64,000 bases of DNA, from the NCBI GenBank assembly GCA_963845755.1, contig CAWJTV010000038.1:32001-96000 (forward strand). Direction: 5' to 3'. This DNA is from an uncultured Planctomycetota bacterium (GTDB lineage Bacteria; Planctomycetota; Planctomycetia; Isosphaerales; Isosphaeraceae). The notes beneath the pieces were generated by a model, which saw only the letters and a list, made by a program, of their open reading frames with translations, was not told the DNA's origin and searched no databases. Both the position numbers and the translations under genes were made by a program. Positions 13,404 through 36,613 of the stretch are shown here, one piece after another; the first letter of the stretch is position 1, and each line of letters opens with the position of its first letter.

Positions 13404-15580
13404 TTACGAGGAAACTGCCTTGACCATGTAGATGACCCCCGCCCCCGTGCCTTGCGAACTGAACAAGTCCCCGTTGCTGGACAAATCGGCGATGAAGAGC
13501 GCGTTGCTGGTGGACAAGAGCCCGTCCAGGTGGCCGATGTTCGGCTCGTTATTGCCGATGAAGTCGAAGTATTTGCCGGTCGCCCGGTTGTAGAAGACCA
13601 GCGGGTTTTCCTCATTCGCCAGTCCGCCGAGGTCGAACCGGCCGTGGAACCCGACGAAGATTCCGTTGTTCAGGCTACTCGGGAAGCCCGCCGGTGCGAA
13701 GGCGATCTCGGAAGGCCCCTCGCTCTCCGAGCCGGTGTAGGGGTCCGGCCACGGCTGGAAAGCCACCACTGCTCGCATCGGAGAGCCGACGATTTTGCCG
13801 GTCCGGTAGGCAATGTAAGAGTCGGGGAAGCCAAAGTTGAAAACCTTGGTCCCGATCCGGGACGCCGGGATCGCGAAAACTCTGTTGACGCTGAGAGGCT
13901 CATCTTCGTTGGGGGGGAAGTCAATTCCGTTTTCCTCGAAGTAGAGATCGCCCGTCGTCGGGTCGAACGCCATCCCGGCGGCATTCCTCAGACCGCTGGC
14001 AATCTGGGTCAATCCGCTCATGGTCACGGAAGAGCTGGAATCCTGGACCGTCACCATGTAGATCGAGGAGCCATGGAGCGTCCCTGAGATCAAGCCGTTC
14101 ACTCCGACCATGTCGGTGTCGGGCGCGTCGTTGTACTCCGAGCCGATGTTGAAGAAGAGATCGTACTCACCAGGGCCACCGCCAGGCGTCGGCCGGACCG
14201 CCGTTGCGAAGGTGGTATGTTCCCAGGAGGCATTGGGAAACGCGAAGTTCAGGCTCCCGACCAGCGAGTATGGGTCGGACGGCGAGGCACCCATGCGGAG
14301 GACCCAGATCGACTCGCTTTGTGTCTGCGAGCTCGTGACGAAAACGAGATCGCCGGCCACTCGCATGGCCGTGAGTGTTCCCGGCAGTCCGGAATACATG
14401 ACCTGGCCCGGCCCGTCCGCCACGCCATTACCGTCGGCGTCCACGAAGCGGAGCAGCGTGCCCGTCGAATCGTAATAGTTCCCCCCTGGCAGCGGGTCGC
14501 TCGTTCGACACGAGGAGCGACCCGTCGGGGAGCTGCTGCATGCTGTGGGGATAGTTGAGCCCCGTAGCGAAGGTTGTGATCCGGTAGTCGGCCGGGTTCA
14601 CGCTGGGGTCGCCCCCGATGGCAAAGGGCTGGGGCAACTGGACCGTCCCAGCCACGGAAACCGAGTCGAACGATGCGGTGGAGTAGCCCTGGCCCTTTAC
14701 GGCTGCGCCACCATCGAGTGCCGGATCGCCACCAGTGCGGTCGGTCCAGCCGCTCTGCTGGAACATCCAGCTCGAGGGTTCGGGCGTCCCGTCCTGCCAC
14801 ACTTTGCCCAGGAGCGTCCCGCCCTGGTCCGTGAGTTCGAACCAGTACCAAGTGCCCTTTTGCCAGGAGAAGGGGAAGGCATTGCCCCAGGTCACGCCGT
14901 CGTCGAGGAACTGAACCTGGTTCTTCCCGTGCAGGACCAGCTCGTAACCCTGACCCGTATTGGGGTCCGTGTAAATCCCGACGCCGGCGGCGCGCCGCAT
15001 CACCCGCGACCCAGTTGGTGACCGAGAGCTTGGCCGTGATCGCTTGATCCGATGGATAAGACTGGTCAGTCAGGATCGCCTTGCTGCTGCCGGAAGGTCT
15101 TGTAGTGTTGAACTGCTGAAGCATCCCGTCTTTCTGCTGCCACCTGCCCCCTACGAACGACCAAGCCGGGTTGAGGGCCCGCGAGTTCAAAGAGTCCGCG
15201 AAGATGGGATACGGATTCGGGAGGGCGGCTTGGGTGTAGGCGGATGCAATGTTGCTGCGCTGGACGTCGCCCGAAGCATTGCGAGCGACCACCTGATAGC
15301 TGTAGAGGATGCTGTAGTAGAGCCCGGTATCCGAATAACTCGTTGTGCCGCGTTGGGCGGTCGCGATCGTGAAGAAATCGATGCCGTTGTAGCTACTCTG
15401 AATCCTGTACGAGACTTCGGGCTTGTCCGTCGTCCAGGACAGATCGATCTCGCCGGGGGGGCCCGTGACCGCACTGAGCGTTACGGACGGCACAGCCCGG
15501 TCCTCGAGGGGCTCGAGGCAGAAATGACGGGCGACTCGCCGACGGCGGGTTGACGTCGAGTCTCCACGCATGTGTCTCAT
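13404..15580 (-). CDS. Planctomycete exported protein: LEPLEDR motif, fibronectin type III domain, glucose/sorbosone dehydrogenase-like propeller (frameshifts at about 14990 and 14490)
   Basis: RRRR..FCLEPLEDRAVPS; FN3 pattern IDLSWT..SYSDTGL..YSYQVVARN; FATGLNYP, ASGLRNAAGMAFDP, FNFGFP, FVGFHG. Confidence 0.7.
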
Positions 15581-16278
15581 GGCTGCGCTCTCCTGATCCA
15601 GGGTGTGGCTCAAAACCGATCGGTTACGAGAGAGGTGATCGGCGTATGGGCCAAGCTTGGTGGATGTGGATCCTTGGGGTCGGTCCTCTGTTGCGCAGGC
15701 ATGCCGCCTACGGGGCCGCTCAGGCAGGAGGCACTCCGGCCCCGTTACCGATCTTGGCCCATGAGTCTGGTGATCTTCGGTAGCCCATCCCAGCGGCGAG
15801 ATGCACGATTTCCCTGGTGTAATGATTGGGCGGCCGAGATCGTTAAGATAAGCCCCCACGCTCCCAGGGTCAATGGCCCGCAAAACGGGGATACATTTGC
15901 CTTGGCCTGCTCCCCATTTTTTGGTCCAGTGATCATGGGCATCACCTGTTCGTTGATTCAGTAGACTAGTCGTGCCTTGCTCCTCAGCATCGTTGGTCGT
16001 GACATGCCCATTCTCACTGGAAACCGGGGCCTGGCATGGAGTCATCCCAGACCCCGGTTTGTTTGGGGCCATCGGCCCCTTTGAGAGGGACTGTCTGCCG
16101 GTGCTTGTGCAATTTCCCCGATCATCACCCCGTGCATAAAGGCCCGAGGGTGCCGTGTGAAGTCTCCGTGAAGACTCTGAGAAGCATCGGGATTCGAGTC
16201 GGGCCGGGCGAATAGACTGGCAGAAACGGTCCGAATCGGGTTCCCAGGAGGCGGGGCGGCACAAAAGGAGCCATTTCG

Positions 16279-17859
16279 ATGGGTTGGCCGGCGCGATTAG
16301 GCAAACGGGTCCGCGATGGCTTACTCGCCATCCTTGGGGTGGCGGCGCTGAGCCTTGGGACTTTCTTCGCCCTCCACGAGCCGCGGGAGCGACCCGTCCG
16401 GCTGCGGATGACCGCCGGTCAGGACGGGGGAACCCGTCATCGCATCGCACTGGCGCTGCAGCGGGAGGCGGCCCACCGTGCAATCGCGATCGAGTTGCAA
16501 GCGATGGTTGGCTCGGGGGAGGCCCTCCAGGCCGTGGAGTCAGGACGGGTCGATGCGGCTTTCGTGCAGGGTGGGCTCGACATGATCGACCATCCGGGCC
16601 TCCGTCAGGTCGCGGTACTCCACGTCGAACCGCTTCATCTGTTGGTCAAGGAGGAGATCCAGCGCGCGGTCACCGGCAACCTCGGCGGGCTGCGCGGGAA
16701 GGTGGTCAATTTGGGCGAGCGCGGCAGCGGAACCTACTCACTGGCCAAGGAGGTCCTGGCCTTCTCTGGCTTGCGGGCTGGGATCGATTATACCGAGAGC
16801 ACTCACACCTATGTCGATCTGGAGCGGGAGCCAGAAGGATCCCGGTTGCCCGACGCGGTCTTCACCGTCTCGACCCTTCCCTCGCCAATTGCGCGCCACC
16901 TGGTCACGAGGCACCACTACCGGCTCACGTCGCTGCCCTTCTACGAGGCGTTCGCACTCGGGACCCTCGACGAAGACCACGCCCTACACAATCCCCGGGG
17001 TCAGTCGTTCTCCCGGATCGATCGTCGGCGCGTCTACGACGCCACGATCCCAGCGTTCGCGTACGAAATCGAGCCCGGCGTCCCGCCAGAGGCGATCCAC
17101 ACGCTCGGTACCCGATTGCTGCTGGTCGCCCGCAAAGATATCGCGGCAACCACGATCCGACGCCTCCTGGAAGTGGTCTTCAATTCCCCGTTCTCACAGG
17201 TCCTCCAGCCAGCGCTCGATGCGAGGCTGTTCGAGTCGCCGCCGGAACTGCCCTGGCACGACGGCGCGATCGAATACGTCCGTCGCAACTCTCCCCTCAT
17301 CGCGGGCGACGTCATTGACCTGATCGAGAAGGAGGTGAGCATCCTCGGGGTCCTAGCTGGCGGCCTATACTGCCTGATCCAGTGGCTGCGCCGGCGGTTT
17401 CGCCGACGACGCGCGCGAAGCTTCGAGGCGTATATTCTTCAGGTCGCCCGGGTTGAGCGCCTGGCGTTGGCGTTGTCGCGGGCGCCGACTCTAGACCTCG
17501 CGCAGTTGCTGCAACTCCAGGAGGACCTGGCCCAAATCAAGGGGGAAGCGCTCGAGCGCTTCGCCGACGGGGAACTCGATGGCGAGGAACTCATGTCGGG
17601 ATTCCTGGTTCACGCCAGCGACGCCAGAGACTTCCTGATCCGACTGATCTTGCACGAGCGCGACAATCTGGAGGACCACGCCCGGGCTCAGCACCGACCT
17701 GCAGAGGTACTCTGGAAGGAGGCGGTTGGCGAACCCATCCACGGGGCAGTGGATCATCGCGGAGTCGTCAACAGCCAAGACCTGGTTCCCGTGTCAAACT
17801 CAGCCGGCTCCTCGCTCGAGGTACCCTACTGGAGGCATGGGTCGGCGGGGGCAGATTGA
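16279..17859 (+). CDS. TAXI-family TRAP solute-binding protein, membrane anchored, with C-terminal extension
   Basis: GSGEALQAVESGRVDAAFVQGG, EPLHLLV, LRGKVVNLGERGSGT, LPWHDGAIEY; N-terminal and internal TM helices. Confidence 0.85.
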   Translation: MGWPARLGKRVRDGLLAILGVAALSLGTFFALHEPRERPVRLRMTAGQDGGTRHRIALALQREAAHRAIAIELQAMVGSGEALQAVESGRVDAAFVQGGLDMIDHPGLRQVAVLHVEPLHLLVKEEIQRAVTGNLGGLRGKVVNLGERGSGTYSLAKEVLAFSGLRAGIDYTESTHTYVDLEREPEGSRLPDAVFTVSTLPSPIARHLVTRHHYRLTSLPFYEAFALGTLDEDHALHNPRGQSFSRIDRRRVYDATIPAFAYEIEPGVPPEAIHTLGTRLLLVARKDIAATTIRRLLEVVFNSPFSQVLQPALDARLFESPPELPWHDGAIEYVRRNSPLIAGDVIDLIEKEVSILGVLAGGLYCLIQWLRRRFRRRRARSFEAYILQVARVERLALALSRAPTLDLAQLLQLQEDLAQIKGEALERFADGELDGEELMSGFLVHASDARDFLIRLILHERDNLEDHARAQHRPAEVLWKEAVGEPIHGAVDHRGVVNSQDLVPVSNSAGSSLEVPYWRHGSAGAD

Positions 17860-20670: not shown

Positions 20671-23600
20671 TCACTTCTCCGGCTGTAATTCCCGCCCGGC
20701 CAGGAGTGCCTCGGCCTCCTTCAGGAGCCTTTGTGCTTCTTCATCTCTGGCCGAATTCGGCTTCTGCATCGTCTCGCGTAATCGATTCAGGCTCGCCTGA
20801 GCTCGGTCCTTCTCACCCATCTGGTACCGGGCCATCGCCAGAAAGGCCAGGTCCGCCGGAGCGTGACCCCCTTGATCCGCCTGGTTGAGTTCGTCCGCGC
20901 GCGTCAGCGTGGCCAGGGCCTCCTGGTACTTCCCCAGGCGGTACTGGGCCATCCCCAGAGTGGTATGGTAGGAACCCTCAAACGGAATGAGGCGGCAGGC
21001 GATTTCCGCCTGATGAACCGCCCGGCGGTACGCGGCGGCTCCAGCGCCCGGACGGGAGGCGACCGCCCGACTGGCCCGGTCAAGGTAGCGCGGGGATTCC
21101 CCGAATCGCTCCGCCAGGGCCAGGGCCTCTTGCCGTACAGGTTCGCTAAGGACAGGATCGGCGCGGAGGTGTGCGAGGATCTCAGACCGGAACAGAGGCT
21201 TGTAGATGAGAGACTTCACCGCTTTCTCGGCCTCCTGACGGACGCGGTTTCGCCAAAACGGCTCGACCAGGGTGAGAGCTTGCTGCCGCACGGCGTCGCT
21301 GACGGCGTAGTCTCTGAGCCGGGCCGACACCGCCTCCGGGGCCGGCGATTGGGCGAACAGGAACCTGACCAGGCTTGCCGCCTGCCGCTGTTCGGCAAGT
21401 TCCGTGTCGAGGGGGGACCCTTCCCAGATCGTCACGCCCTCGTCTCCACTGACCGCGAGGCGCCGGCCACCGCGATCGAACGCCACACGGTGCAACTGGG
21501 CCGGCACCCGCGCAGGGTAAGGATTTCCTGTCCGTTGAGGGCGTCCCAGAGCTTCACTTCACCGGAGAAATGCCCTCCCTTGCTCACCCCGCCCGCGGCG
21601 GTGACAAGCCGCCGGTCGTCAGGACTGTACGCCACCCCAAGCACGGCGCTCGTATGTCCGCGGAGAGTAAGGAACGTCTCTCCGGTGACCGCGTCCCAGA
21701 CCTTGACCGACCCGTCTACACTCGCGGCGGCGAGCCGCGAGCCGTCGGGACTGTACGCGATGCGTGTGACAGATCCCTCGAGGCCGGACAGCGTGAGGAT
21801 CTCCTGTCCCGTGGCCGCGTTCCAGACACGCACGGTCCGGCCCGCACTCGTGGCCAGGCGCTCACCGCCGGGGCGATAGGTCACGTGGGCGAACCCGGGG
21901 TCTCTGCCAGGCTCGGTTCGCCCGGGCCGTGTCAAGACCGTCTGCCCCGTCCTCATGTCCCAAATCATGACCTCGCCGGGAACGAGCCGTCCTCCCCCCG
22001 CCAACTCGCGGCTAATGGAAGCGAGACGCTGACCGTCGGGACTAAAGGCCACAGCGTGAATGGAAGCGGTGTGTCCTCGTAAACAGAAGATTTCGACGCC
22101 GTTCGTCGCATCCCAGACACGTACAGTCCGATCCTCTCCGGCGGAAGCGAGCCGCCGGCCGTCGGGACTGTACGCCACTCCCAGAACGGCACGGCAATGC
22201 CCGGTCAGTGTGAAGACCTCCAGCCCCGTGGTTGTATCCAGGATACAAACCGTGTTATCCGTGCCGACCACGGCCAACTTCCGGCCGTCCGGGTCAAACG
22301 TCATATCCTCTATGCGGCCGACGGCCGCGCTCAAAGTGACGGCGTCCATCGCCGCCGTCGCATCCCAGAGCTTCACCGTGCCGTCCCCACTCCCAGAGGC
22401 CAGGCGCCAACCGTCGGGGCTAAACGCCACACTCGCGACGCCGTCCTTGTGGCCGCGCAGGACGGCGGCTTCTTGCCCGGTGGTCACGTCCCAGACCGTC
22501 ACGGAATCGTTCGCAGCCGCAGCCGCGAGTCGCCGCCCGTCCGGGCTAAACGCCAGGCCCACAACTCCACCCACCTGTTGAAAGGCCAGGGTTTCTCTCC
22601 CCGTGTCCGCGTCCCAGACCTTCACCACCCCATCGTTGCTGCTCGAGGCGAGGCGCCGGCCGTCGGGGCTGTACACCACGCTGTTGACCAAGTACGGGTG
22701 CTTGCCCAGGCGGAAAAGGTCTTTTCCCGTGGCGGCATCGCAGACACGAATCGTAGGACCGTCCGCAAAGGCGAGTCGCCGCCGCGGCTCCGCCGCGGCG
22801 GGGCTGAAGGCCACGGCGATGGAGGCAGTCGGCACGGCCGCAGCCTCGTTCCCCGGAATGCACAGCAGTTGCTTCCCACCGGCCGCGTCCCAGACTTTCA
22901 CTTCGCAGGGTAAGACCGAACCCGTGGGAGCAACTCCCCTGCCGAAGGAGGCGAGCTGCCGGCCGTCCGGGCTGAACGCCAGGCCCCAGACCGGAGTGGC
23001 GTGCGCGGGCAGGCCAAGAAGCTCGCGTCCGTTGGCCGTGTCCCATAGCTTGATCTCGCCCGGAGTGAACACTCCCCCATTCGCGGAGGCCAGCCGCCGG
23101 CCGTCCGGACTGAAGGCCAAGCAAGATACGAAGTCCTTGTGCCCGCGCAGGCAAAAGCGCTCCCTTCCCGAGGCCACGTCCCAGACCTTGACCTCCCCTG
23201 GTTGGCCATAATTGCCGGCGGCGGACGCGAGCAGTCTACCGTCCGGACTGAAGGCCACGCAGCGGACGGGAGCCGTGTTGCCGAGCAAGGTGCGCATGTC
23301 GAGCCGGCACAGGCGCTGCAAGTGGTACCACTCGAAGCTTCGCAGGTCCGGCGCACCGGGTTCGTGCGGTTTGAGGACGTCGAGCCGCCGCTCGAGCGAA
23401 GCGAGTTCGCCCTCCTGCCAGTCCTTCTGGGCCAGGGTACTTTCCGCGGCGTACCAGCGTCGGTCGCTACGCGCTTTTTCGGTCTCCAACCTCTGGGCGT
23501 AGGCGAGCGTGTCTTGCTCCCGGTTGCTGGCCTGGATCGCGTAATGCGACGTGCCGGCCATGCCCAGCAGCAGCGAGGCCGCCACCGCGCCGAGTAGGAG

Positions 23601-24842
23601 TGCCACGGCCGGGTTGCGCCGGCACCAGCGCCACGCTCGCTCGGGGCCGGAGATGGGCCGGGCCACGATCGGCTCGCCGGCGCGGAACCGGCGGAGGTCC
23701 TCGGCCATCGCCGCGACATCGGGGTATCGCCGAGCCGCGTCCTTTTGCAGCGCCTTCAGGCAGATCGTCTCCAGGTCGCGGGGCATGCGGGGAATGAGCT
23801 GTGACGGAGCGACCGGCTCGGCGGTCCGGATCAGGTCGAGGGTGTCCAGGATGGACGACCCGCGGAACGGTGGCCGGCCGGTGAGCATCTCGTAGAGGGT
23901 GGTGCCCAGCGCGTACTGGTCGGCGGCGGGGCCAGCCTTCTCGGCGCCGGTGGTCTGCTCAGGCGCCATGTAGCTCGGCGAGCCGAGGATCGACCCGGTA
24001 CCGGTCTGGCCCGAGTCGGCCTCGAGCCGCTTGACCAGGCCGAAGTCGGCGATCTTTGGCGTCGTGTCGGCAGCGAGGAGGACGTTCGCCGGCTTGATGT
24101 CGCGGTGGACGATCCCACGGCGGTGGGCCACGTCCATGGCCCGGGCCAACGTCTCGATGATCCGCGCCGCGTCCTCGATCGGCTGCGGTTTGCCGGCGAT
24201 CCGCTGCGCCAGGCTGCCTCCCTCGAGAAACTCCAGCGAGAAATAAGGCAGGCCGTCGTGCTCGCCGATCTCGAAGATCTTGATGATGTTGGGGTGGTCA
24301 ATCGCGGCGACGGCGCGGGCCTCGGCCTCGAAGCGAGCCAGGTCGTCCGGTTGTGCACCGGCGCCGGCCTTGATCATCTTCAGCGCGACCAGGCGCTGGA
24401 GCCGGAGGTGCCGCGCCTTGTACACGATCCCCATGCCGCCGGCGCCCAGCACTCCCAGGATCTCGTAGCCGGTGATCCGGGGCCGTTTGTCGCCCTCGCG
24501 GCCGACGGTCGATCGGGACGCCTCCTCCGTATTCGCCGCCGCGACACCAGGCGAGTGCACGAAGCCCTCGGTGGCATCGGGGTCGTAGTCGGCCGTCGCA
24601 TCGCGGTCCGGTGCGGTCGGGGCGTCGGGATCCCGGTCGGCGGTGGCATCACGGTCGAAGTCCGTGATCGCGCCGCGGTCGAGGTCCGTGATCGCGCCGC
24701 GGTCGAAGTCGGTGGCATTCGGATTCGAGACCTCGGCATCGGGCTTGTAGTCAGCCGTCGCGTCGCGGTCGAGGTTGGTGACCGCGTCGCGGTCGAGATC
24801 CGCGGCATTCGGATTCGAGGCCTCGTCTGGGAGACGTGCCAT
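20671..24842 (-). CDS. Ser/Thr protein kinase with WD40 propeller and C-terminal TPR-like region (frameshift at about 21510)
   Basis: LGAGGMGIVY, VALKMI, HRDIKPAN, DFG, YMAPE; a hydrophobic helix; many GH..V..VAFSPDGRRLAS..D.TVKVWD repeats; TLGMAQYRLGKYQEALATL. Confidence 0.95.
24560..24825 (-). repeat. Imperfect 24-nt (8-aa) tandem repeats at the kinase N-terminus
   Basis: DRDAVTNL DRDATADY ... DRGAITDL DRGAITDF DRDATADR DPDAPTAP DRDATADY DPDATEGF; SNPNA(A/T)D occurs twice. Confidence 0.85.
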
Positions 24843-24976: not shown

Positions 24977-25222
24977 TTATAGGCCCCCGACTTTGCAACC
25001 ACAAAACCCCGTGCCCGGATCAAGGTCACATATCTGACCAGTAGCACAGCATGTGGCCGTGCCGTTGCTGCAAATGCAAGCATTGGGATAACTGGGATTC
25101 ATACAACTGATGACGGTGTGAGCGGGTTCGATGCCAGGTTCGGTGCTGCCGCGGGCGGGTCGGTGCGTTGGCCAGGAACAGCTCCCACGGACGACCGCGG
25201 GTGCTTGCACGGGAGGTTTCAT
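24977..25222 (-). CDS. Putative RiPP precursor 2: cyanobactin-like leader plus 8-Cys core (81 aa)
   Basis: AAGGAG RBS at 25230-25235; MKPPVQAPAVVR...GIEPA|HTVISCMNPSYPNACICSNGTATCCATGQICDLDPGTGFCGCKVGGL; paralog of the neighbouring ORF. Confidence 0.82.
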   Translation of the reverse strand: MKPPVQAPAVVRGSCSWPTHRPARGSTEPGIEPAHTVISCMNPSYPNACICSNGTATCCATGQICDLDPGTGFCGCKVGGL

Positions 25223-25288
25223 GTCCGGTCTCCTTTCAAGTGGACCCGAGGGAAAAAAGGTGCGCGGGGATGGCTTAATTTAGAAGCT

Positions 25289-25344
25289 GTTTCTAAACGG
25301 GGACTGGCTCCGAGTCTTCGAGGTGCCTGTCCCCCTTTTGAAAC
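25289..25344. repeat. Imperfect palindrome (REP-like or RNA hairpin) between the two precursor genes
   Basis: GTTTCTAAACGGGGACTGGCTC ... GTGCCTGTCCCCCTTTTGAAAC. Confidence 0.65.
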
Positions 25345-25350
25345 CGCCTT

Positions 25351-25629
25351 TTAGGGCTTGGGCTTGCAGGCACACCCGCCGGTGAGAATGGCATTACCAT
25401 CCTTAGCCGGTTCGCACCCATACTGGCAGCAATTGCAGGTACCATTAGGGCACCTGCACACCTGATAATTACTGTCAAAGTTGCACTTCCACTTATCACG
25501 TGAGGCGTTACCTACACAGACGTCGAAGTCGCTTCGGAAGGACGCAGAGACGCCATGGGCCGAAGAACGGCGGGCCGGCCAGGAGTGGCCCTCACGGAGG
25601 ATGGCTGCGGCTTGCACGGGAAGCTTCAT
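25351..25629 (-). CDS. Putative RiPP precursor 1: cyanobactin-like leader plus 10-Cys core (92 aa)
   Basis: AAGGAG RBS at 25637-25642; MKLPVQAAAILR...GVSAS|FRSDFDVCVGNASRDKWKCNFDSNYQVCRCPNGTCNCCQYGCEPAKDGNAILTGGCACKPKP. Confidence 0.82.
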   Translation of the reverse strand: MKLPVQAAAILREGHSWPARRSSAHGVSASFRSDFDVCVGNASRDKWKCNFDSNYQVCRCPNGTCNCCQYGCEPAKDGNAILTGGCACKPKP

Positions 25630-25679: not shown

Positions 25680-27543
25680 TCAGCGCGTGAACCAGGCCGC
25701 GCGTTCGGACCGACCGTCACTGGCACGGTGTCGCTGACGTCCACCGTAAACCGGTACACCCGGCGCACCGTCTGCACCTGCCGCTCGGGATAGAAGAAGT
25801 ACAGTTCGACATCCCAGCACTCCGAGCCGGGTCGGCAGATCGGGCTGCGGACGACGTTGACGCTCTCCAATTCCATCTTTTCCTTCAGGGCGGCTTCGTA
25901 GATTCTCTCGAAGGCAAAGGCATTGGTGGCCGCGAAATTGATGGCCCGGTCCTGCGGCGTCAGACCCAGGTTGCGCAGGCCGTGGTAAACGCGGTCGAGG
26001 AAGTTGCGGAGGCCCTCCGTGCGCTGCGCATGCGCATCGCGCTCGGGCTGGGGAGCCTCCGCCGCGGGCGCGGGGCCGGCCACTGAGTCCGTCAGGGCCG
26101 CAGTCGTCCAGCTAAACATGCCGCGCAATTCCGGCACGATGACGGGCACGACCTGCCCCGTCAGGAGCGTGGCCTTGCCGGCAACGACGCCCGGGATCGA
26201 TACACGCTCGACCCCCTCGTCCAGTTGCTCACGCAGGAACCGCCGCAGTTCCTTGTAAGCGTCGGCGGCGAACGGTCCTTGCGGCCGGACCGCGTAAATC
26301 GCCGTGCCGTCGAGAGAGAGGGTCCATTCGACGGAGGCGGCGTCCCAGGGGTGCTCGTCGAGATAGTCGAGCATCCGCCGGGGGTCGAACGCCAGGACGC
26401 GTTCCGTATGACTCGCACCGGTGACGCCGGCTATCACCTGGGCGAGGCTGTCGAGGCGGGCTTCGCTGACCAGGTCGTAGCCGAGCTGGCCGAGAGCGTA
26501 GACCAACTGCCGCGACCCGGCCTGACAACCGCAAGCGGACGGTTGGACTGCCGCGGGGCGAACCGCGTTTTCGGTCGGGCCGGGTGGGATCGGCGAGGCC
26601 GCGTCCAGGTTGTCTTGGCTTGGCGCCACCTCGCTCTGTGAGGCGGTGGAGTCGGACATGGTCAGCATACTCCGCGTGAGGATTGTTACGGCTCCATCGA
26701 CACTCAACCGTCCAGCCAGGAGGCGGCGGCAATCCGTTGTCGGCTTCTGATCACATCCGAGGGCACTGAGCAACAATGCCTCCCGGACGAACTGCGGGCT
26801 CGGCTGCCGGCCGCGTTTTCGCTGCAAACTCAGGAGCAGGGCCGCGACTCCCGAAACCACGGCCGTCGCGTAACTGGTGCCGGTACCCGCGCCGTACCTC
26901 CACCGGGTTGCGCTCCCAGTATATCCACGCCCGGCGCCAATATCCCCTGGATTCCGTAAAGAGCGCCCCAATTGCTGGACTCGAGGGGTTTCCCCTGGGC
27001 ATCCATCGCGCCCACCGCCAGCACCGAGTCGAGGGCGGCGGGGACGTGGAGGCACGCGCAACCGTCATTGCCCGCGGCGGCGACGATCAGGACGCCGCAC
27101 CGGGCGCAATCGCGGACCACGTCGGCCAGCAGCGGGTGAGCAGTGCCCGAAGGGGAAAACTGTCCGCCGCTGATGTTGACGACGTGGGCGCCCTGCTGTA
27201 CCACCTGGGAGATGGCCCGTGCGAGATCGAGTTGCGAACAGAGCTGAATCGACTGCTCACTGACGGACTGAAAAATCGGCACGAGGACGCCTCGGCAGAG
27301 CGGCGCGAGGCCCGGCACGGGCCCGTCGTGCTGGCCGAAGATCACGCTGGCGATGTGGGTACCGTGCCGGCTGGCCAGGCCGAGGTCGGCGGTCCCCGAA
27401 ACCAGGGTTTCCACCTGCGTGAGGTTCGCAGTTTTCAAACTCGGGTGGGAGCGGTCAACCGGCCCGTCCAGCACCGCGATGCAGACCGCGGGATCGCCAA
27501 GGGTCTCGGCCCAGATTTCTCGGATTCCGGAGAGGAGGCCCAT
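25680..27543 (-). CDS. PatA-like cyanobactin maturation protease: S8 domain plus PatA/PatG C-terminal DUF (frameshifts at about 26887 and 25700)
   Basis: Catalytic triad IAVLDG, HGTHIASVIFGQ, GTSYAT; CSQLDLARAI, NISGG, AAAGNDGCACLHVPAA; DUF motifs LVYALGQLGYD, FLDRVYHGLRNLGLT..DRAINFAATNAF, SPICRPGSECWDV, VYRFTVDVSDTVPVTVG; corrected end ..AWFTR-stop at 25680. Confidence 0.93.
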
Positions 27544-27922: not shown

Positions 27923-27981
27923 GTAGGTCAGGCTTTCCAGCCTGACGTCGGCGGATTGTCAGGCTGGAAAGCCTGACCTAC
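27923..27981. repeat. GTAG-type REP doublet (perfect 24-bp inverted repeat) between convergent genes
   Basis: GTAGGTCAGGCTTTCCAGCCTGAC-N11-GTCAGGCTGGAAAGCCTGACCTAC; each arm is itself a hairpin. Confidence 0.88.
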
Positions 27982-34904: not shown

Positions 34905-36412
34905 TTAACGGCCAAGTTGAGACTCCGCGATCTCGATCGCCTTGAGCAGTCCCCTGGCCTTGTTGACCGTCTCCTCATATTCGGCGCCGGGTACGCTGTC
35001 GTGGACGACGCCTCCGCCGGCCTGGATATATGCCGTACTCCCCCGGATGACAAGGGTCCGGAGGGCGATGCAGGTGTCCATGTTGCCGGTAAAGTCGATG
35101 TAGCCGACGGCGCCGGCATAAGGGCCGCGCTTGCTGGGCTCGACCTCATCGATGATCTGCATGGCCCGGACCTTGGGGGCGCCGGAGACCGTGCCGGCGG
35201 GGAGTCCGGCGCGGAGTGCATCGAAGGCCGTCTGGTCGGCACGGAGGCGACCGGTGACATTGGAGGTAATGTGCATCACGTGCGAGTACCGTTCGACCTT
35301 CATGACGTCGGTGAGCTGGACGGAGCCGTACTCGGCGACCCGCCCCACATCGTTTCGCCCCAGGTCGACCAGCATGATATGCTCGGCCCGCTCCTTGGGG
35401 TCCGCCACCAGCTCTTCGGCCAGCGCGCGATCCTCGGCCTCGTTGCGTCCTCGCGGCCGGGTCCCCGCCAGCGGCCGGATCGTCACCAGGCCCTCCTCGA
35501 CTCGCACCAGGATCTCCGGTGAGCTGCCGATCAGGGCGAAATCGCCGAACGGGAGGTAGAAGAGGAACGGGCTGGGATTGACCACGCGCAGCACGCGGTA
35601 GATGTCGAACGGCCGCGCCCGGGTCTCCACCTCGAACCGCTGGCTCGGGACGACCTGGAAGATATCGCCGGCCTTGATGTATTCCTGGCAATGCCGGACG
35701 ACCGACTCGTACTGTTCGCGGGTGAAATTGGAGCGGAACGGGAGCGAGACCGGCGTATCGGTGGCGATGTCGCAGACCCCCAGGTCCGGACCGGGAGCGG
35801 CCAGGCGGTCGACCAGCTCGTCGATCCGGTCGCAGGCCGACTGGTAGGCGGCCTTCGGATCCGCCGACGGGCCGACGTGCGCTGCGCGACGACGAGGATC
35901 GTCTTGCGGATGTGGTCGAAGAGGACCATGCGATCGTAGAGCGCGAACGAGAGATCGGGGAGCCCCCGATCGTCGGGGGGGACGTTGGGCAGGTCCTCGG
36001 TGTATCGCACCGCGTCGTAGGACGCATAGCCGACGGCCCCGCCGGCGAACCGGGGGAGCCCCGGGAGGGCAACGGCCCGGAATTGCTCGATGAGCCGCTG
36101 GAGGTCGCCGAACGGGTCGGTCGAGGAGAACCGCCGATCCGCGGGGCCGCCGGCGCCCTCCGCGATCGTGACCTCGGACCCCCGGGCTTCGAACCGGAGG
36201 AACGGCTCGGTCCCCAGGAAGCTGAAGCGGCCGACCTTCTCGCCGCCGATGACGCTCTCGAAGAGGAACGATGGGTCCGCGCGCGCGATCCGGCAGAACG
36301 CGGAGACCGGAGTCAGCCCATCCCCGGTCAACTGTCGGTAGACGGGCACGCACGACACCGAGGGTCCCAGGTACCGGGCGAACTCTTCGTAAGACGGGCG
36401 ATAACGACTCAT
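34905..36412 (-). CDS. trpE: Anthranilate synthase component I (frameshift at about 35880)
   Basis: [75 protein letters not shown]. Confidence 0.96.
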
Positions 36413-36613
36413 CGACGGCCCATTTCCCGCAAGTCCCGCGTGCGAACCGCAATGCATGTACGTTAACACCCCCGATCCCTCGCGACAAGCCCGGCCGCGG
36501 GGGATACGCGGCGGCAGCCCGGCGCCGCGGTCACGCCGGAAATCGTACGATTTATTTGCGTTAAGTCCGGAGCCTTCGCCCGGGACGCCGGATGGCCGCG
36601 TCGTCGCGGTTGC

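Follow-up and report, generated by a model that had tools for sequence, protein, structure and literature searches.

Organization of the locus

Within the 64,000-nucleotide stretch of planctomycete DNA analyzed here (the window), two short open reading frames, each with an AAGGAG ribosome-binding site ahead of it, immediately follow a gene matching TIGR03895, Peptidase_S8, PatG_D, and PatG_C. Judged from its sequence, the locus is a minimal PatA-type system made of an S8 protease-DUF and Cys-rich precursors. Its features are as follows.

25680..27543, minus strand: PatA-type S8 protease with cyanobactin DUF (PatG_D and PatG_C; TIGR03895, PF00082, PF18047, PF18065)
26870..26881, minus strand: GTSY motif of the catalytic serine, which this assembly places in another frame than the Asp/His part
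26525..26551, minus strand: AVQPS-ACGC in the linker immediately ahead of the DUF, an embedded site resembling those of the precursors followed by a Cys pair
25683..26506, minus strand: DUF domain, whose predicted tag pocket combines two strands (GM[FY]SW and the C-terminal one) with the TNAF loop
25351..25629, minus strand: precursor 1, 92 aa; predicted core with 10 Cys
25594..25629, minus strand: tag of precursor 1 (aa 1-12), predicted DUF ligand by matrix rank and co-fold
25540..25554, minus strand: GVSAS, predicted P5-P1 of precursor 1 (aa 26-30)
25276..25350, no strand assigned: REP-like hairpin repeat between the precursor genes, outside the system
24977..25222, minus strand: precursor 2, 81 aa; predicted core with 8 Cys, leader with 1 Cys
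25187..25222, minus strand: tag of precursor 2 (aa 1-12), by matrix rank
25121..25135, minus strand: GIEPA, predicted P5-P1 of precursor 2 (aa 30-34)

The window peptides matched no NCBIfam model, Pfam gave nothing usable for them, and the ESM Atlas returned unnamed clusters only, all below 0.8. Counterparts of precursor 2 are present in the loci L001 and L027. A promoter and terminator scan stayed at chance level. The hairpin at 25276-25350 had 101 BLAST matches in the genome, self-matches and matches of both arms counted, and is absent from the contig of a relative, where 34 other letters are found instead. A second family of REP-like hairpins, at window positions 27923-27981, gave 175 BLAST matches in the genome. 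In the window, L001, and L014, the precursors are followed by a codirectional Ser/Thr kinase gene with WD40-like repeats (window 21432-24842), and an opposite-strand repeat-protein gene apparently takes its place in several family-level relatives (loci compared: L022, L023, L024, and L029).

The protease-DUF gene and its interrupted frame

The protease-DUF protein has about 620 aa when intact. In this assembly the gene carries two frameshifts, one near 26885, just ahead of the GTSY catalytic motif, and one near 25698-25706. The base missing at 26885 is present in the contigs of relatives from two of four short-read runs, and the extra bases near 25700 are absent from such contigs in two of four runs. 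The orthologs of P0017 (91% identical) and L014 (620 aa) are intact, and the neighboring kinase gene is likewise frameshifted relative to its own intact ortholog. Since the contigs and orthologs of relatives keep the frame and the kinase gene is also shifted, the frameshifts are probably assembly errors. One locus counts against this: L001 is shifted at the same place as the 26885 site and has an in-frame TAG in addition. This shared position raised the possibility of a programmed frameshift ahead of the catalytic serine, which we rejected in view of the intact close orthologs. Further window genes look frameshifted (14249-16483, 21432-24842, and 34905-36488), which fits an indel-prone assembly.

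The shift shared with L001, together with the broken copies seen in several relatives, could also mean that the window copy is a decaying pseudogene that has lost its active protease, its similar leaders being left over from a recent duplication. We hold this to be very improbable, given that intact orthologs span 610 to 654 aa, that at both places the frame stays open in short-read contigs from relatives, that the broken kinase gene points to indel errors, and that the tag described below is conserved across phyla.

The intact ortholog is of the A type, with an E value of 1e-96 to PagA versus 1e-47 to PatG, and the fold match agrees. Its full-length model (pTM of 0.86; linker disordered, with pLDDT below 50) is consistent with the protease and DUF domains packing together. 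In another locus (L003:6000-7400), the DUF coding region is split by an insertion of several hundred bases, and a transposase-like ORF lies nearby.

An N-terminal tag shared by the leaders

A 12-residue tag, M-K-x-P-V-Q-x-x-x-[IV]-x-R, opens both window peptides. A position matrix trained on 20 regex-picked leaders from nonorthologous loci ranked them first and second (21.7 and 19.5 bits; the next scored 11.4) among the 130,249 ATG-started ORFs of 40 to 200 aa in the genome, so the tag goes beyond chance. The alignment of 26 leaders gave the consensus MxLPxQxxxVxR ... GxxPS, with M1, P4, and R12 invariant, an invariance partly built in because these leaders were chosen by pattern. A profile search of representatives returned 20 matches; the profile contains the cleavage site and is hence no independent test of it. 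Genome searches for PF18065 were positive in 5 of 401, 13 of 101, 3 of 351, and 10 of 201 cases; among plasmids, 12 records matched the DUF, and 5 of them were examined at the locus level. The tag is kept across phyla. A PDB sequence search with a leader gave no match.

An earlier note, made from the letters alone, had pointed to LPVQAAAILR and PPVQAPAVVR near the N termini, a shared SWP..R, and GVSAS (aa 26-30) or GIEPA (aa 30-34) ahead of the Cys-rich region, and all of these lie where it placed them. It also took the N-terminal motif to be that of PatE, and this part needs qualification. Its statement on PatE agrees with the published cyanobactin leader motif KKNxxPxxxxPVxR (PMC3428304) and with the PatE peptide NILPQQGQPVIR (PMC5108345). 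Relative to the former, the window peptides keep P4, V/I10, and R12 and have neither KKN nor P9. The PatE model TIGR03678 was matched by 4 of the 26 family leaders (best E value of 0.0012) and by neither window leader. The link to PatE therefore runs through the relatives, because the window peptides themselves have no NCBIfam match, KKN, or P9. The PatB model TIGR04220 was also matched by 4 of the 26 leaders. In the leaders of relatives, aa 3-17 align to positions 7-21 of TIGR03678 and aa 1-12 to positions 1-12 of TIGR04220, and the 12-residue tag also opens PatB of Gloeothece PCC 7822 (L018:12389-12604), again in register from Met1. Going by these alignments, the tag matches the N terminus of PatB as well as PatE, so it is not specific to PatE.

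The tag and the cleavage site recur in the family, but SWP..R is confined to close relatives. It can thus be ruled out as a family-wide recognition element, although W17 still touches the DUF in the best co-folding run.

On a Streptomyces plasmid (L021:7212-9125), six small genes lie together, most of them with Px(Q)xPP[VI]xR tags, G[VL]EA or GVES sites, and Cys-free hydrophobic cores.

Predicted cleavage site and Cys-rich cores

In PatE, GVEPS is a site of PatA and LAELSEE is the heterocyclase-binding motif. GLEAS is described as a protease signature of PatE and A/SYDG as its follower (PMC3995012). Neither window peptide contains an AYDG-like or LAELSEE-like motif, which bears out what had been noticed at first reading. 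Of 22 distant precursors, 17 have a strict [VIL]xP[SQA] site between aa 15 and 55 (shuffles: mean of 2.5, maximum of 8) and the other 5 lack one; a looser form admitting GVSAS occurs in 10 of 10 near relatives, and a second count of site conservation gave 19 of 26, with about six automatic site picks that look misplaced kept in the counts. Within one homologous core family, the site alternates among GVSAS, GISAS, GLSPS, GVEPA, GVEPS, and AVEPS, and length changes fall directly after it. In the AlphaFold2 model of the precursor, aa 1-35 are disordered and the rest is folded, the core forming a small beta-sheet with a mean pLDDT of 60; a comparison of this model with PDB folds (Foldseek, VIA-align) gave no match. 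The exchange of sites, the length changes right behind them, and the disordered first 35 residues make it very probable that cleavage occurs after S30 in precursor 1 and A34 in precursor 2, as had been proposed.

The predicted cores, of 62 aa (precursor 1) and 47 aa (precursor 2), run to the stop codon. The number of Cys is even in 48 of 52 predicted cores and in 8 of 12 further cores, and these mostly even counts suggest that the cores are disulfide-bonded. No signal peptide or exporter was identified, a point against the pathway proposed below, since it offers no account of where the disulfides would form.

Relation to cyanobactin systems

The 88%-complete genome contains no match to the YcaO heterocyclase model (PF02624; controls positive in 5 of 14), to PatB (TIGR04220; control genomes silent too), or to the PatF/TruF prenyltransferase (TIGR04445; controls silent too). 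It has a single fused protease-DUF gene plus split loci, and a G-type protease/macrocyclase with a capping helix was not found in it. These negatives support the absence of the other enzymes, the one for the heterocyclase being backed by positive controls, and the protease is of the A type. The C-terminal RSIII follower (A/SYDG, FAGD) was not found in the window cores. Two cyanobactin features are present: the A-type subtilisin protease with a C-terminal DUF, frame-split here and intact in orthologs, and the five-residue N-terminal protease signature GVSAS/GIEPA, a predicted site interchangeable with GVEPS/GVEPA in homologs. Judged by these predicted features, the module operates as PatA does in cyanobactin biosynthesis and falls outside the group for want of a G-type protease and a follower.

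We compared the system with its closest known counterparts, with a single plasmid locus, L018, and PDB entries standing for the canonical cyanobactin clusters. PatA and PagA (TIGR03895; PDB 4h6w, 4h6v, 3zxx, and 3zxy) gave the best sequence and fold matches and share the S8 protease with a C-terminal DUF, and their PatE-type substrates carry a five-residue G-[VIL]-x-[AP]-[SA] signature such as GLEAS (PMC3995012). Their pathways differ from the present one, which has one protease, no PatG, PatD, PatF, or PatB found, no A/SYDG follower, and a planctomycete host. PatE-type precursors carry short cassettes, whereas each window precursor has one long Cys-rich core of 47 to 62 aa. Among other cyanobactins, piricyclamide precursors were found by the N-terminal KKNxxPxxxxPVxR and some of the products have disulfides (PMC3428304), while the anacyclamide cluster lacks a PatD homolog, as here (PMC2854353); both differ in having a G-type protease, followers such as FAGD, and macrocycles of 7 to 22 aa, in contrast to the absence of G-type protease, follower, and KKN in the window system. 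PatB, AcyB, and McaB (TIGR04220) share the tag in the same register from Met1, as seen in PatB of L018, but have a conserved body and no Cys-rich core; the function of PatB is described as unknown (PMC4663559).

Two classes of tag and two classes of DUF

Pattern matching detected the PxQ tag at 19 of 25 fused-class loci but at none of the 13 stand-alone-DUF loci, whereas the PGFTAE tag was detected in all 13 stand-alone-DUF loci and in none of the 25 fused ones, two of the loci in the set, L002 and L037, being near duplicates. Four further fused loci (L017, L023, L026, and L030) have a tag-like start by eye, and three DUF loci (L031, L032, and the methyltransferase-DUF locus L020) have no tagged peptide within 600 bases downstream of the DUF. 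The DUF tree consists of two clades, with a support of 1.0 for the stand-alone class; since the classes form two clades, the split between tags and DUFs counts as one phylogenetic contrast.

Three more DUF loci occur in the genome of the window (C31:175037-177430, C14:49562-52520, and C36:419967-420554, i.e., L010, L012, and L013). Those on C31 and C14 encode the S8 protease and the DUF as separate genes, while that on C36 is a remnant, and the Cys-rich peptides at these loci start with M-x-[MFL]-PGF[TSG]A. Having both tag classes in one cell offers a natural test of specificity. In two genomes (L039, L047, and L049 in G865; L042, L048, and L050 in G890), the protease-DUF gene is followed by a protease-free tandem-DUF gene and then by tagged precursors.

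Predicted binding of the tag by the DUF

The earlier note had suggested that the DUF may recognize the N-terminal motif and that the pair be co-folded. We used the DUF of the ortholog P0017 (residues 345-620; 101-row alignment) in place of that of the window gene, together with aa 1-32 of window precursor 1 (26 rows). The co-fold score was 0.72 (runs of 0.72, 0.00, and 0.81), and the best of three controls, which were unrelated proteins rather than scrambled or other-class tags, reached 0.02. The mark used was reached by 116 of 157 solved pairs versus 2 of 215 mismatched pairs, a calibration that is no more than approximate for our own alignments. Across the runs, contact agreement was at least 0% and the pLDDT of the partner at least 26. 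The confident interface joins leader aa 1-12 and 17 to DUF residues 432-449, 475-488, 540-546, 599-600, and 609-615. The only solved DUF sequence that we found, 4uvq, is a structure of the DUF alone (PMC4259220), so recall of a solved complex is an unlikely source of the prediction.

In a set of 17 fused and 11 stand-alone DUFs, conservation at the 32 interface positions exceeds that at random DUF positions (0.74 versus 0.62; P = 0.003), and 11 of the 32 switch between the DUF classes, versus 5.5 expected (P = 0.01; e.g., G475Q, W479F, N541R, A542Y, T600R, and V609F), with the reservation for both tests that these positions are not independent and that some may belong to the buried core. On the strength of the co-fold and of this class switching, we consider it rather likely that the DUF binds the N-terminal tag.

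The co-fold run at 0.00 speaks against this, and the published evidence on PatG likewise points the other way. Mann et al. (2014) found the HSQC spectrum of 15N-PatE' unchanged when PatG-DUF was added at up to 2 equivalents, in an experiment that left PatA-DUF and PatB outside the test, and put a reproducible ITC curve of PatG-DUF with PatE' down to aggregation (PMC4259220). PatG-DUF (PDB 4uvq) is the same domain (E value of 9e-52) and keeps the GMYGW and TNxF segments of the pocket; it is reported not to bind PatE' and differs around the predicted pocket for tag position 2, where Glu439 is found here and Gly in 4uvq and L018. PatE residues 1 to 15 do not bind the heterocyclase and were given no role in that study (PMC3995012). 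The domain was still called "of unknown function" in 2025 (PMC12639078). In our literature search, whose coverage left out most subscription journals, home of much cyanobactin biochemistry, we found no description of the module or of a DUF ligand.

The negative NMR result with PatG-DUF, along with the activity of isolated protease domains without the DUF (PMC4259220), would suit an arrangement in which cleavage takes place as predicted but the tag is read by a protease exosite, an exporter, or another trans-acting factor, with the DUF being structural or oligomerizing. An oxidase could be such a factor: the peptide NILPQQGQPVIR was co-crystallized with ThcOx on the strength of unspecified evidence for possible binding and showed no density (PMC5108345). 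Moreover, protease and DUF are inherited together, so cosegregation cannot separate them. We nevertheless judge such a reader outside the DUF unlikely, considering that the co-fold puts exactly the 12 conserved residues on the DUF, that the pocket residues switch with the class of tag, and that the surroundings of the window locus showed neither an oxidase gene nor any other tailoring gene.

An embedded site ahead of the DUF

The linker motif AVQPS-ACGC resembles a precursor site followed by a Cys pair. Of 120 homologs, 113 could be parsed; 112 of these 113 have CxC or CxxC within 30 aa before the DUF, and 60 have a precursor-like [VIL]x[PA][SQAE] site ahead of it (shuffles: mean of 3.1, maximum of 12). 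DUFs that stand alone, occur in tandem, or are fused to a methyltransferase have comparable site motifs in front of them. The embedded site may mark self-processing or autoinhibition. It recalls the emRS of G-type macrocyclases in that an enzyme holds an internal copy of the recognition sequence of its substrate; the emRS mimics RSIII and lies beside the capping helix, whereas the window motif mimics the A-protease site and precedes the DUF (bioRxiv 2020.03.17.996157).

The near-universal Cys pair, the embedded site in its various DUF contexts, and the title of the PatA structure 3zxx, which calls it self-cleaved, could also indicate a DUF that binds the tag mainly as a folding or redox/metal chaperone: once freed at the embedded site, it would expose CxC/CxxC and oxidize, isomerize, or metal-load the cores. 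This role seems improbable to us, as no such site was found within 45 aa in 53 of the 113 homologs, the model shows a disordered linker, and the tagged peptides of Streptomyces are mostly free of Cys.

A proposed maturation pathway

We moderately favor a reading of the locus as a minimal operon for peptide maturation of the PatA type. In this reading, the leader has two parts, the DUF is the leader-binding domain, and a subtilisin cut yields linear cores. In the precursors, the tag (aa 1-12) and a variable spacer lead up to the G[VI]x[AP][SA] site, behind which comes a Cys-rich core that is hypervariable. The DUF, acting as the substrate-recruiting domain, would grip the tag as an extended strand in its predicted pocket; the spacer would bring the site to the subtilisin cleft; and the attached subtilisin domain would cut after S30 or A34. 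The linear 62- and 47-aa cores thus freed would probably be disulfide-folded, with no azoles and no macrocycle.

A broader version of this proposal is more speculative, and we lean somewhat against it as a whole. Here, the DUF, whose structure of 2014 left its role unexplained, would be a leader-binding domain with a fold unrelated to RRE, coevolving with its tag (PxQxxxVxR versus PGFTAEASL) and released or regulated via the embedded site, and the protease-DUF would be the ancestral core of a widespread maturation system for disulfide-rich miniproteins, to which cyanobactin chemistry was added later. As PatB begins with the same tag, it would be a natural ligand or competitor of the DUF in canonical clusters. 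If true, a single interaction would tie together the DUF, PatE residues 1 to 15, and PatB, with named residues to mutate.

The predicted pocket makes the old question of DUF function testable, and nowhere could the interaction of DUF and tag be tested more cleanly than in this minimal system of two components. The Cys-rich, hypervariable cores make up an unexplored group of bacterial miniproteins, and a portable 12-residue tag recruiting a PatA-type protease could serve peptide engineering. DUFs fused to methyltransferase-like domains, with no protease, occur at L018:9892-12291 and L020:6329-7885, and such fusions fit a portable substrate-recruiting module.
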